IMG/VR virus record: IMGVR_UViG_3300005739_000025
DNA: 64,000 bases
Reading direction: 5' to 3' (one strand)
DNA from: a virus
Lineage: Duplodnaviria; Caudoviricetes
The position numbers and the translations under genes were made by a program. The notes under the pieces were generated by a model, which did not search any database, was not told the origin of the DNA, and worked only from the letters and a program-made list of their open reading frames with translations. Positions 9,825 to 57,213 of the stretch are shown piece after piece. Each line of letters begins with the position of its first letter. The stretch's first letter is position 1.

Positions 9825-11624
9825 GTGGCAGAATACGGAAACGCAGCAACAGGTAGAGAATCTACATTTGGTAAATCGTTAATGAATTACATTAACTCTT
9901 ATTTACCATATGGTTCATACAATACTTTAGAAACAATTGATAAGTTAAATCCTAAATTTACTGAATTTCAAGACACAGGTTCTAGACGTACAGAAGCTCT
10001 CGCTAAACAATCAATTTCTTCTTCCACACAATTTAATAATGAATCTCCTGCTGCCTATTTTAATATAGATACCAATTTCTCACAATATATGTATGCCAAT
10101 ATTCAGGCAGACAAAATTGCTAGATTGAGAGATTATAGAGTGATGGGAGCTTTCTCAGAGGTTTCAAACGCGTTAGATGAAATATGTGATGAATGTGTTA
10201 ATAAAAATGATAACGGTCAAATTATAAAGGTAGCGTTTAGAGAAGATGATTTTTCATCAGAAATTAAAACAGCAGTAGAAGAAGAGTTTCAAAATTATAT
10301 TAGATATTTTGAATTAGAAGAAAAAGGCTGGGAGTATTTCCGTAGTGTGCTGACAGATGGTGAGGTTTATTTTGAACACATAATACATAAAGATTATACA
10401 AAAGAGGGTATTTTAGGTGTTGTTATCATACCTACTGAGCTTGTAGATCCCATTTACGGTAACGTACAAAATATGATTGTAAAGGGTTATCTTTTAAGAA
10501 AGCCTGTATTTGATCCTAAGAACCCACAAAAGATTTTAGATTATCAATTAATACCCTTAGATAAAAACCAAGTTACTTACATTAACTCTGGGGTTTGGAA
10601 TGAAAATAGAACAATGCGCATTCCATTTATCGAAAATTGTAGAAGAGCTTATAGACAATTAAGCTTAATTGAAGATTCTGTAGTTATCTATAGATTAGCT
10701 CGCGCCCCTGAAAGATTAGTATTCAACGTTGATGTAGGAACAATGTCCCCACCTAAGGCTGAAGCTTATTTAAAACGTTTAATGACCCAGTACTGGCAGA
10801 AACGTACTTTTGATTCTTCACAAGGTGGTCAAGTAACTAAATTCAACCCTCAAAGCTATCTTGACAATTATTGGTTTGCAAGAAGACAAGGGTCAGAAGG
10901 AACATCAGTAACAAATTTACCTGGCGCTCAAAACCTAGGTGAATTACAGGATTTAAAATATTTTCAAGAGAAGTTATATGAGGCACTTAAAGTGCCCAAG
11001 AATAGACTAAACAAAGAAAGTGCTTATAACGATTCTATTAATATGCTCAGAGAAGAGCTAATGTTTGCAAAGTTTATTGTTAGAGTTCAACAAAAATTTG
11101 CTGCCGGTCTTAAAAATGGCTTTATTACACACTTAAAATTAAAAGAAGTTTGGGAAAAGTATGATCTCAAAGAATCAGCATTTAATTTAGAGTTTACACC
11201 TCCTACCAATTTCTATGAATTAAGAGAGTTTCAAAAATTAGAGATTAAAGCAAACGCTTTTAACACAATGGTTCAAAATGAGTCTATTTCTAAAACATAT
11301 GCTCAAAGAAAATATTTAAAATGGTCAGATAAAGAAGTAGTTCTTAATAGGGAGTTTTTAAGAAAAGATAAAGAATTCGAATGGGAGCTAGCACAAATTA
11401 CGGCTGGTGGTCCCAACTGGAAGCTACAACAAGCACAAGGCGCTGCACCCGCAGAAGGTCAACCAATGGCCGCTGGCGCTCCAACAGGTATGCCCGGTGA
11501 AGGAGAAGTACCACCACCGACCGAGGGTGGGGAGGTTCCACCTGAGTTCGGACCTGCACCAGCTGCTCCTGCTCCAGAAGGAGGTGCAGAGCCTACTACT
11601 ACAGCTCCTACACCTACAACATAA
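9825..11624 (+). CDS. gp20: Portal vertex protein (T4 gp20-like), with a Pro/Gly/Ala-rich C-terminal tail
   Basis: YRLARAPERLVFNVDVGTMSPPKAEAYL, YWFARRQGSEGTSVTNLPG, LYEALKVP, REELMFAKFI; GTG start. Confidence 0.95.
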   Translation: MAEYGNAATGRESTFGKSLMNYINSYLPYGSYNTLETIDKLNPKFTEFQDTGSRRTEALAKQSISSSTQFNNESPAAYFNIDTNFSQYMYANIQADKIARLRDYRVMGAFSEVSNALDEICDECVNKNDNGQIIKVAFREDDFSSEIKTAVEEEFQNYIRYFELEEKGWEYFRSVLTDGEVYFEHIIHKDYTKEGILGVVIIPTELVDPIYGNVQNMIVKGYLLRKPVFDPKNPQKILDYQLIPLDKNQVTYINSGVWNENRTMRIPFIENCRRAYRQLSLIEDSVVIYRLARAPERLVFNVDVGTMSPPKAEAYLKRLMTQYWQKRTFDSSQGGQVTKFNPQSYLDNYWFARRQGSEGTSVTNLPGAQNLGELQDLKYFQEKLYEALKVPKNRLNKESAYNDSINMLREELMFAKFIVRVQQKFAAGLKNGFITHLKLKEVWEKYDLKESAFNLEFTPPTNFYELREFQKLEIKANAFNTMVQNESISKTYAQRKYLKWSDKEVVLNREFLRKDKEFEWELAQITAGGPNWKLQQAQGAAPAEGQPMAAGAPTGMPGEGEVPPPTEGGEVPPEFGPAPAAPAPEGGAEPTTTAPTPTT

Positions 11625-44123: not shown

Positions 44124-44156
44124 AACCCCGGCCTGTATAACAAGCCGGGGTTTTTT
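44124..44156 (+). terminator. Intrinsic terminator
   Basis: AACCCCGGC...GCCGGGGTT followed by a T-tract. Confidence 0.9.
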
Positions 44157-44172
44157 ATTGATCTTTGACAAT

Positions 44173-54554: not shown

Positions 54555-55634
54555 TTGAGTATATGTCTTAACATGATTGTTAAGGATGAATCTAAAAACA
54601 TCCTTAGATGTTTAGATTCAGTCTCACCCTATATAAACTATTGGGTAATTTGCGATACAGGTTCAAGCGATAATACAGTTGAAACTATTAAGAACTACTT
54701 TAACCAGAAAAATATTCCAGGAGAGATTCATGGTCATGGTTGGGTAAATTTTGGAGTTAATAGAAATTTAGCTTTAGAGTTAGCAAAAGATAAAGCGGAT
54801 TATATATTGCTTTGTGATGCTGATATGGAAATGGTAGTTAATCAACCAGATTTCTTTTCTAATATTAATAGCTATGGTTTTGATGAAGCTACTATTATTC
54901 AGGAATCTGATCATTTATCATATCACAACATAAGAATTGTAAGCGGTAAGAAAGATTTCAATTATGTTGGTCCTACTCATGAGTATATAACCGCTAAATT
55001 CAAAGATGTAAACAGATTAGATATAGATAAATCTGTACTATATTTCAAGGATCATGCTTCAGGATTTAATAGAACAAACAAATTTCAAAGAGACATAGAG
55101 TTGTTGGAAAACGAGCTGCTAAAGTTTCCATCCAATCAAAGATATAGATTTTACCTGGCCCAAAGCTACAGAGATAACAACGATAAAGATAACGCCATTG
55201 CCAATTACAAAAAGGTTCTTTATTGTAATGGCTATGTTCAAGAGAAGTACATATCTTGTTTAAATTTAGGTAGATTATATAAAGATAAAGGAGAAAAAGA
55301 ATTAGCAGTCTTTTACTACTTAAAATCTATAGAGTTTGATAGTTCTAGAATAGAGTGTATGGTAGAGGCTACAACTATTCTTAGAGAATTAAATCAACAT
55401 AATTTGGTTTGTTTGCTCTATGATAGATATAAAAATTACTCTAAAAATATACAGCACGCATTATTTCTAGAGCCAAAACTATATAATAACGAGCTTGAAT
55501 TTAATTTTTCAATTTCAGCCTTTTATGTTAATAGAAAGGAAGAAGGTTTACAAGCTATTAAAAAAATACTTGAATCTCCAGATAGTTCAGATCATATTAG
55601 ATTTTTAAGTGAAAAAAACTTGAAATTTTTTTAA
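54555..55634 (+). CDS. Family-2 glycosyltransferase with TPR repeats
   Basis: ICLNMIVKDE, ICDTGSSD, W.NFG.NRN, DAD, HEY, FYLAQSY. Confidence 0.9.
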   Translation: MSICLNMIVKDESKNILRCLDSVSPYINYWVICDTGSSDNTVETIKNYFNQKNIPGEIHGHGWVNFGVNRNLALELAKDKADYILLCDADMEMVVNQPDFFSNINSYGFDEATIIQESDHLSYHNIRIVSGKKDFNYVGPTHEYITAKFKDVNRLDIDKSVLYFKDHASGFNRTNKFQRDIELLENELLKFPSNQRYRFYLAQSYRDNNDKDNAIANYKKVLYCNGYVQEKYISCLNLGRLYKDKGEKELAVFYYLKSIEFDSSRIECMVEATTILRELNQHNLVCLLYDRYKNYSKNIQHALFLEPKLYNNELEFNFSISAFYVNRKEEGLQAIKKILESPDSSDHIRFLSEKNLKFF

Positions 55635-55677
55635 AATTTTAGTTGAGGTTCCTTAGAAAGACTATATATTAATAGAA

Positions 55678-56063
55678 GTTCTTTGACATTTAAGGGGGTA
55701 GCAGATAGCCGGTTGAGTCGTGCACTGCTTTAAACTGATCTTGACTCGATCAAGCCTTCTTAACAACGGTAAGGTATGGTGTTTAACGTCCCTAACAAAA
55801 TGTATCACCTTATAAATGGTATGCGAACTCTACCACTCTTAAGATCTAAAGAGTCTTCACAGTAAGATAAGCCGCAACAGGCTAAAAAATAGAGCGTGTC
55901 GGTTCTAGGTAAGTACCAAGCCGAAGACTATAGATGGTCAAAAACCTATGTAAAATACGGTTAGGTGTTCTTCGAGTGAGTGTATAAAAATATGCTAGGC
56001 ATTACTCACTCGATACCAGATAAGGCGCAACTTAATCTGGTCCGAAGTGCGATAAAAACACCC
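55678..56063 (+). ncRNA. Large (~370-nt) unassigned structured ncRNA with its own promoter and boxA-like leader
   Basis: No ORF; many stems, e.g. TCGAGTGAGT/ACTCACTCGA, ACCAGAT/ATCTGGT, GGTGTT/AACACC, AGCC/GGCT. Confidence 0.65.
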
Positions 56064-57213
56064 AATTTTCCATGCATAGATTAGCTTATTCAATTCTAGC
56101 GTTTTTATTTGGATTCTGGTTATGTGAATTCATAATTAGTTTATTCTTGAAGAAAGATAAAATTCCTTTAGAATAAGAATATGAAAGTAAAACCAGCTTA
56201 CATGTCATTAATGATTTCCTTTGCACTATTTGCTATTTTAGTCTATCTTGTTAGTAGACTTTAATATGACTCAGGAAGAAAAAATATATCAACTTCGCGC
56301 TCTTCTCTCTTACATTAATATGAGAGTAGGGGAGTTTTATAGTATGGGACTCTACAATAACAACCCGACTAGAAAAGAACTATTCTTTATTCTTAAAGAT
56401 ATAAAAAAAACATTAGAACAGACAAGTAATTAATTGCATTTTTATTAAAGTTCCTACATACTTTTAACAATGAAAGAGCTAAACAAATTAAGGGAAGAAG
56501 TAGCTGATCAAGAATTACATAAATATGATTTTTATGGGTACGTAGAGGATTCCAGTAATTGGGTAAAAGATGGAGATGTGTGGTCCTGTAAGGTCTATCT
56601 TGAAAATGAAGATGAGTATGAAGAAGAGGGAACTACTATTCCTTATTCCTTTACAGTATTTTTCGAAGAAGGTACCACCGAGGTTGAGTCTGTAGAATCA
56701 GAGTGTTTAGCTTAATGGCAAAATATAAAAAAGATTTTCAAACTATAATCTACAAAGGTTATAAAATAGAACAAGTTATTAATCACAATCCTTATCTTTT
56801 CTATGGAGGATATGGTTATCCTGAGAATCACCCTAAGCGTAGATATATGAAACCTATATACGCTGTTCAATGGGCTGATAAGAAGGAAGGTTATTGTTAC
56901 GAAACATACTACTATACTTCTTTAGTTGCCGCAAAGAGAATGATAAATTTTACTGTTAATCGCAATAAGGTCCCTGCATAATATTAACAATGACGAAATA
57001 CGATATTAATTCCCAAGTGGAAGAGTACTTTGGTACATTTGCTGCTGAACCTGCTAATGAAGACATGGTCAGTCTTAGCAGCTATTCTATTGAAGAATAC
57101 GAAGAGTATATTTCAAAAGAATCCCAAGAAAATAGTGAAATTTAATTTAGTTGCTGTTCCTATAAGGTTCCTGTACAATATTTACATAATCAAGAAAGGA
57201 GGTGAAACAAATA

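Follow-up and report, generated by a model that had tools for sequence, protein, structure and literature searches.

A conserved, highly structured non-coding RNA headed by a promoter and a boxA-like motif in uncultured freshwater T4-like phages

A gap of 437 nt between two genes of an uncultured phage encodes a genuine, conserved and highly structured non-coding RNA of about 370 nt, which lies on the plus strand and has its own promoter and a boxA-like motif. The gap was studied in a stretch of 64,000 nt, IMG/VR record IMGVR_UViG_3300005739_000025 (the window; all coordinates are window positions unless a locus is named), where it separates a gene for a glycosyltransferase fused to TPR repeats from an open reading frame (ORF) for a 34-aa membrane peptide (Table 1). 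The phage is large, AT-rich and T4-like: its T4-type portal gene (9825-11624) is 32% identical to the best cultured relative, and the window holds 21 transfer RNA (tRNA) genes according to ARAGORN. No described family matches the RNA, which founds a hitherto undescribed family carried by uncultured T4-like phages of fresh water. The initial annotation of this DNA had proposed an ORF-free, GC-enriched RNA, and both properties hold. No plus strand ORF between 55635 and 56071 is longer than 34 aa, and the GC content of the gap is 0.39-0.41, compared with 0.25-0.33 in its flanks. The plus strand folds at -105.2 kcal/mol with a z-score of -3.43, a value that none of 100 shuffles equals, whereas the minus strand (z = -1.25) folds no better than shuffles.

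Homologues amount to 13 distinct sequences from 15 loci on metagenomic phage contigs. The neighbouring glycosyltransferase and a conserved 55-aa neighbour led to loci L003, L004/L006, L014-L022 and L009, and also to partial copies (L005, L007 and L023-L027). A degenerate pattern of the 3' domain led to seven IMG/VR phage contigs of 32-170 kb (L028-L034) and to L035. Window-specific or over-strict patterns gave no matches in IMG/VR, a first GTDB scan gave none either, and only the looser 3'-domain pattern succeeded. A search for related loci with the glycosyltransferase produced nothing useful, and the glycosyltransferase homologues at L008, L011 and L012 carry no RNA. Two covariance models, R1 for the 3' domain and R2 for the core, were built from the window alone. 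Each matches once per locus in the 15 loci, with the two matches adjacent and in constant order, and the window has one copy. No similar DNA was found among GenBank phages by blastn, nor was any match to the core motifs found in a literature search. Covariation among the collected homologues, which the initial annotation had named as a check, is present, and in no domain does any of 500 shuffles reach the observed score.

A constant core with exchangeable 5' modules

The RNA consists of a constant core of about 245 nt (55818-56062) and an exchangeable 5' module. Seven hairpins and two H-type pseudoknots make up the core. In the core alignment (A17), 91.9% of cells pair, 46 are changed on both sides compared with 17.7±3.5, and the covariation score is 0.337 compared with 0.171 in shuffles (0 of 500). 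The alignment of the 3' domain (A16, 13 distinct sequences) has 87.4% of cells paired, 62 changed on both sides against 22±3.8, and a score of 0.411 against 0.148 (0 of 500 shuffles), with slid controls at or below 0.089. RNAalifold independently predicts H10, H11 and H12. Because G.U cells outnumber A.C cells in the helices by 32 to 5, the plus strand is taken to be the RNA. Three single strands are invariant, namely the UGCAACUCU loop, CACAGUGAAUAAG and AAAGAGCG. H10 and the loop of H5 show no variation and are therefore uninformative either way.

Pseudoknot PKb occurs in six versions in the same register (UAGGU/ACCUA, CUAGGU/ACCUAG, CCGGGU/ACCUGG, CUGAGU/ACUCAG, UGGGU/ACCCA and GGGU/ACUC), all of them complementary, and 15 nt lie between its end and the helix that closes the 3' domain. 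Pseudoknot PKc takes the form GCACGA x UCGUGC in L014, with two compensatory pairs. Pair 3 of H5 is U-A in 8 and C-G in 4 of the distinct sequences, the switch having taken place in independent lineages. This bears on a domain 1 that had been thought to be closed by GGTAG and CTACC. Both strings occur in the sequence, but CUACC (55830-34) belongs to the local hairpin H5 (GGUA-loop-UACC) as its 3' strand and, since a pair of H5 covaries, does not close a domain of 130 nt. The proposed 3' domain fared better: its closure by GGTGTT and AACACC is present and encloses two hairpins, of 10 bp and 6+3 bp, and what fell away is the GNRA loop, since the loop of H12 is CGCAA and forms one strand of PKc.

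Several other pairings were considered and dropped. L003 and L009 lack an inner GG/CC pairing in H8. The local hairpin AACC/GGUU, an alternative to PKb, is invariant, while PKb covaries. The closure UUUGAC/GUCAAA of the minimum-free-energy fold is not conserved. Pairing of the H5 loop with AGAG, considered as a possibility, has both sides invariant. In principle the H5 loop could compete for UUGCG, the partner in PKc, though not in L014. A search for "twin boxes" in the RNA surfaced only the 9-mer GCAACUCUG, common to the H5 loop and to the H12 loop with its 3' strand in L004 (4271-4279 and 4480-4488) and L026 (72-80 and 282-290), and the idea was rejected.

Table 1. Features of the RNA and its immediate surroundings in the window
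Feature	Position	Strand	Remarks
Glycosyltransferase, family 2, fused to TPR repeats	54555-55634		PHROG: beta-1,4-glycosyltransferase
Sigma-70-type promoter TTGAGG-N16-TATATT	55643-55670	+	-35 box 55643-48, -10 box 55665-70; 9 of 12 matches
boxA-like motif GTTCTTTGACA	55678-55688	+	About +2 to +12 of the predicted transcript
5' module, three-way junction with kissing loops	55694-55759	+	P1, H1, H2
P1	55694-98 x 55755-59	+	Comparative
H1	55700-04 x 55725-29	+	Comparative
Kissing loops GAGUC x GACUC	55715-19 x 55743-47	+	Comparative
H2	55737-40 x 55748-51	+	Comparative
H4 (GGUG x CACC)	55778-81 x 55806-09	+	Hairpin 55778-55809; loop of 18-20 nt conserved in closer relatives
H5 (loop UGCGAACUC)	55818-21 x 55831-34	+	First part of core, 55818-55883
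H6	55836-40 x 55849-53	+	4 of 5 pairs changed on both sides
Conserved strand	55854-69	+	First part of core
H7	55870-73 x 55880-83	+	First part of core
Conserved AGAGCG strand	within 55884-55963	+	Core, pseudoknot domain
H8	55899-904 x 55919-24	+	Pseudoknot domain
Pseudoknot PKb UAGGU x ACCUA	55906-10 x 55944-48	+	Six complementary versions
H9	55926-30 x 55935-39	+	Pseudoknot domain
H10 GGTGTT x AACACC	55964-69 x 56057-62	+	Invariant; closes 3' domain 55964-56062
H11, 10 bp	55972-81 x 56004-13	+	3' domain
H12, 6+3 bp	56016-25 x 56031-40	+	3' domain
Pseudoknot PKc CGCA x UGCG	56026-29 x 56048-51	+	H12 loop forms one strand
A/U-rich tail CAAUUUUCC	56063-56071	+	Conserved; AUUUUC-like in all relatives
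34-aa single-pass membrane peptide gene	56072-56176	+	Frequent, not constant, neighbour

The 5' part is variable among lineages. Its three-way junction is present in the window, the L004 group, L009, L028 and L034, and other modules are found elsewhere. In a plain MAFFT alignment of the junction (A13), 97.5% of cells are paired and 8 pairs are changed on both sides, compared with 3.2±1.3 in shuffles (0 of 500) and 0-2 in slid controls. The stem of H4 is GGUG/CACC in the window, GAGGUU/AACCUC in L004 and GGCAGA/UCUGCC in L007. Further modules occur in differing combinations, X in L003, L013, L009, L028 and L034, Y in L028 and L035, and Z in L029-L031, together with an optional extra hairpin. 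X, Y and Z each resemble a small, independently folded domain and have no match in Rfam; they can be seen at L028 4330-4650 (minus strand), L035 2592-2690, L029 230-318, L003 5089-5197 and L013 1330-1431. Because these modules combine differently while H5-H12 are constant, the total length ranges from about 330 to 600 nt or more. The length of about 370 nt in the initial annotation is thus right for the window, and its single fixed fold gives way to a constant core with interchangeable modules.

Promoter, boxA-like motif and RNA libraries

The predicted promoter TTGAGG-N16-TATATT is present as proposed. The window has 14 promoter-like sites compared with 13.2 expected, so the hexamers alone are not above chance; the promoter gains weight because relatives have one at the same place. 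A near-identical stretch occurs in L009, TTGACA-N17 is followed by TATATA in L029 and by TATAAG in L031, and other -10 boxes are found in L034 and L035. In the window and these five relatives, 7-20 nt separate the -10 box from the boxA-like motif. Wherever the upstream sequence is intergenic, a sigma-70-type promoter precedes the motif.

The boxA-like motif was likewise part of the initial annotation and lies where it was proposed. It has the form G-W-TCTTT-R-A-N-A, and in each of the 10 loci checked it lies where the RNA begins, on the same strand as the RNA. Against the boxA consensus GYTCTTTAANA (PMC5725501), which is gamma-proteobacterial and may not be that of the host, the window motif agrees at 10 of 11 positions and that of L030 (GTTCTTTAAAA) at all 11. 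The motif occurs three times in the window, compared with 0.81 expected, and a loose pattern has only four further matches across 117 kb of loci, one of them heading a tRNA cluster at window 44160. Around that site (44126-44170), a strong terminator hairpin (CCCCGGC...GCCGGGG and a T-run) is followed by a second boxA-like motif, GATCTTTGACA, and then by the tRNA cluster. The phage seems to mark its untranslated operons with a boxA-like motif. Lineages L004, L003 and L013 have the motif on or directly against the stop codon of the glycosyltransferase gene, in frames that differ, so coding constraint is not what preserves it. Ahead of the motif, the L004 lineage shows no separate promoter.

Both in its agreement with the consensus and in its place after a promoter, near the predicted 5' end of an untranslated transcript, the motif qualifies as a putative boxA. 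It resembles the boxA of rrn leaders and lambda nut, the NusB-NusE site, in that it stands just after a promoter and heads an untranslated unit that can run into tRNAs. It differs from these in that no boxB- or boxC-like partner was identified and in that the L004 motif overlaps the upstream stop codon. In L004 (4099-4109) and L014 (1313-1323), the motif holds the glycosyltransferase stop codon as CUU-UGA-A, resembling the +1 frameshift site of prfB. A frameshift site was rejected, as other lineages have the motif between genes or not in frame, and the resemblance is probably a coincidence.

Parts of the RNA stretch occur in sequencing runs of 10 studies of fresh or other waters. Four runs were aligned to the window, two of which are metatranscriptome libraries from different studies. 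The metatranscriptome contigs cover 55701-56026 (349 nt, from a relative, spanning H1 to H12) and 55824-55993 (98% identical), and an 81-nt contig of depth 132 falls on 55884-55932, where conservation is highest. At 55701, one base into H1, the sequence borders on a read-1 adapter in the orientation of a plus strand RNA ending there in a dUTP-stranded library. These contigs are consistent with a processed plus strand RNA, without proving it. The aligned RNA runs have no contigs on the flanks 54600-55700 and 56079-57200, and no RNA run is listed that matches the downstream flank 56080-57000; neither blank says anything about expression.

It is also evident that the downstream neighbour varies. 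The peptide of 34-36 aa follows the RNA in six lineages (the window, L003, L004, L009, L027 and L028) and is absent at L029-L031, L034 and L035. In L029 and L031 a tRNA-Met starts 6 nt past the 3' domain, and other lineages lie near tRNA arrays. A new promoter, TTGACA-N17-CATAAT, stands after the RNA in L030, and unrelated ORFs follow in L034 and L035. The constant downstream gene class expected of a leader is therefore missing, and this variation indicates that the RNA is an autonomous unit and not the leader of one gene. The stand-alone nature claimed for it draws support from those relatives that have a tRNA or a new promoter next to the RNA, but not from the window itself, where no canonical terminator comes after the RNA and an ORF begins 9 nt past the last helix.

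Relation to described RNAs and competing explanations

To find out whether the RNA belongs to a described family, it was compared with known models. At the gathering score, Rfam 15 finds only tRNAs in the window, and at E≤10 it finds nothing relevant on the locus or in four relatives, so the cmscan-type check named in the initial annotation yields no family. The exclusion of transfer-messenger RNA (tmRNA) and RNase P RNA is upheld by ARAGORN and Rfam searches. Neither ARAGORN nor the Rfam models detect a tmRNA, the 5' and 3' ends do not pair into a tRNA-like domain with T-arm and 3' CCA, and no tag frame is apparent, with ORFs of at most 34 aa and frames broken by indels of 1-2 nt between relatives. 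RNase P RNA models have no match at E≤10 in the window and four relatives, and the GAGGAAAGUCC-type motif is absent from the sequence. The models of manA, Polynucleobacter-1 and other Rfam phage RNA motifs have no match at E≤10 either. A group I intron finds no model match; the upstream glycosyltransferase has its own stop codon, and the downstream genes are unrelated small ORFs. The window's 5' module, with its P1-closed three-way junction and complementary hairpin loops, resembles the purine riboswitch in architecture only; it has no Rfam match, its loops measure 7 and 20 nt, and it is dispensable, being replaced in relatives.

GOLLD and ROOL are large, multi-helix, pseudoknotted RNAs of phages and prophages that have no assigned function, often stand beside tRNA genes and self-assemble. 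The new RNA resembles GOLLD (RF01998) and ROOL (RF03087) in being a large, pseudoknotted phage RNA that can adjoin tRNA genes. It differs from them in having no match in sequence or structure (neither covariance model matches at E≤10 in the window and four relatives), in its smaller size (a core of 245 nt), in lacking a terminal closing helix and in having exchangeable 5' modules. We know of no obligatory boxA at the RNA start, such as the new RNA has, in GOLLD or ROOL. Of the suggestion that this is a member of, or a class akin to, these RNAs, the kinship in kind survives, namely a large phage RNA near tRNA genes without a described family, and membership does not.

The closest analogues by position are rnaC (species 1) and rnaD (species 2) of T4, stable RNAs with no assigned function that share transcripts with tRNA genes and are presumably released by the enzymes that process tRNAs. 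They adjoin tRNA-Arg in NC_000866 and, like the new RNA, are found next to tRNA genes in a T4-type phage. Their length is 119-139 nt, and rnaC has a T-arm-like GGGUUCGAAUCCC that is absent in the new RNA. Homology with them was rejected, since R1 and R2, run with filters off on 70.5-72.7 kb of NC_000866, score at best 6.8 and 8.1 bits at unrelated places.

We consider it somewhat more likely than not that the RNA acts in trans as a stable molecule, processed from a transcript whose synthesis relies on antitermination by Nus factors. Host RNA polymerase would start about 7 nt after TATATT, and boxA, among the first transcribed nucleotides, would recruit host NusB/NusE and other Nus factors as at ribosomal RNA (rRNA) operons. 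Such recruitment is assumed because the order of promoter, boxA, structured RNA and optional tRNAs copies the logic of an rRNA operon. The Nus complex would confer Rho resistance and promote co-transcriptional folding over the long untranslated RNA and the tRNAs or small genes that follow. The RNA would then be cut from the primary transcript near 55700 and just past its last helix, with RNase P presumably responsible for the 3' cut in lineages that have a tRNA next. Once excised, the RNA may accumulate as a compact stable molecule and act in trans on a protein or RNA partner. It might target a protein of the host or of the phage or, in view of its linkage to tRNAs, the translation machinery; self-assembly, as in ROOL and GOLLD, is a third candidate.

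Several observations weigh against this reading. Most of the alignments behind the counts, A16 and A17 included, were made to fit the model structure, so their pairing is inflated, and the sequences are related; the relatives reach fold z-scores of only about -1.7. P1 closes the 5' end locally and H10 the 3' end, with no helix joining the two ends, so that the case for one molecule rests on constant order and adjacency and not on a closing stem. Position 8 of the boxA-like motif is G, compared with A in the gamma-proteobacterial consensus, which is possibly not the host's. The library contigs are no proof, as neither levels nor ends are given and DNA may be present. Finally, the window copy may act as a leader, given the missing terminator and the close ORF.

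HK022 put and eps-associated RNA (EAR) are cis antitermination RNAs that modify RNA polymerase, and the whole RNA with its boxA might similarly stay on the nascent transcript and modify the polymerase, having no function in trans. Its constant place at the very start of the transcription unit, after promoter and boxA, would agree with this, as would the varied cargo that follows with no terminator between and the conserved junction strands, which could contact polymerase. We nevertheless find it unlikely, since the RNA is five to eight times larger than put or EAR, has no Rfam family match and is followed in L030 by a fresh promoter, so that no read-through is needed there. A string of separate small stable RNAs (the 5' module, H4-H7, the pseudoknot block and the 3' domain), processed apart like the RNAs of the T4 tRNA cluster, would account for the local closure of each domain, for the lack of a long-range terminal helix and for the free recombination of the 5' modules (H1/H2, X, Y and Z). 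This too is improbable, given that all 13 distinct sequences have every core block, side by side and in one constant order, that so short a distance separates PKb from the 3' domain, and that a single RNA-library contig runs from H1 to H12.

The peptide gene that follows in six lineages, with its conserved small-gene cassette, raises the question of whether the RNA is a structured leader that controls how the 34-aa membrane peptide is translated, in the manner of a riboswitch or a type I toxin system. The ATG is so near the last helix that the folded 3' domain would overlap the ribosome landing site. We give this little probability, because a tRNA, a promoter or unrelated ORFs take the place of the peptide in other lineages and conservation is far higher in the RNA than in the peptide gene. 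The gap could instead encode no RNA and be a GC-rich spacer that arose by chance or an element that works as DNA, for instance an origin or a site bound by protein; this could be argued from promoter-like hexamers at chance frequency in AT-rich DNA and from evidence of transcription that is indirect. The compensatory changes in about 12 helices and two pseudoknots, the strand-specific excess of G.U and the RNA-library contigs make this hardly credible.

A ribozyme or RNA machine of the phage translation set, acting for example on the 21 tRNAs or on the ribosome, would suit the compact multi-pseudoknotted fold with its invariant single strands, as well as the direct tRNA-Met linkage in two lineages and the tRNA arrays near others. 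It is decidedly unlikely in our view: the RNA matches no Rfam ribozyme, and this explanation is pure inference, with no cleavage site or substrate identified. A wider proposal, to which we attach only a small chance, is that miniature rrn-style operons give rise to a novel RNA machine. Such a ribozyme or RNA-only assembly would act on phage tRNAs or the host ribosome during takeover, with the 5' modules tuning its target or partner.

Large, intricately folded RNAs of no assigned job are rare and have repeatedly led to new biochemistry. Three traits of this one are unusual: the obligatory rRNA-type boxA in first place, the fixed double-pseudoknot core with swappable 5' modules and the direct fusion to a tRNA gene in some phages. 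If boxA is functional, this would be a case in which a virulent T4-like phage uses the machinery of host rRNA antitermination and folding to make non-coding RNAs of its own. At about 245 nt, the core is of a size suited to structure probing or cryo-EM.

Neighbouring genes and minor observations

The upstream glycosyltransferase-TPR protein has more than 1000 bacterial relatives at 35-40% identity and adjoins the RNA in some lineages only. Downstream, a cassette of tiny genes follows the RNA in the window (56072-56433), L003 (5458-6103), L004 (4524-5051) and L009 (6297-6687). It encodes the 34-aa membrane peptide (...FFLNKxxxPLE), a 53-aa coiled-coil protein and a 55-aa helical hairpin, and in the window a 27-aa membrane peptide replaces the 53-aa protein. 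The 55-aa protein has an invariant GLYNNNPTRKE loop and only 14 relatives among 5.8 billion proteins. It is predicted to form a helical hairpin with a predicted local distance difference test (pLDDT) score of 93.6, and only non-significant Rop-like matches (E = 3) were found. A role as a UpxZ-like antitermination antagonist was rejected: the Atlas score of 0.77 does not rise above noise, and no Pfam match appears at E≤10.

Five independent contigs of relatives (L023, L024, L025, L026 and L027) start inside the RNA, which suggests that assemblies break at a highly conserved stretch common to co-occurring strains. The copy at L035 (CALBDR010000484.1) lies on a short contig of 3.1 kb binned into a metagenome-assembled genome of 'Candidatus Melainabacteria'; the binning may be an artefact or a faint hint of the host.
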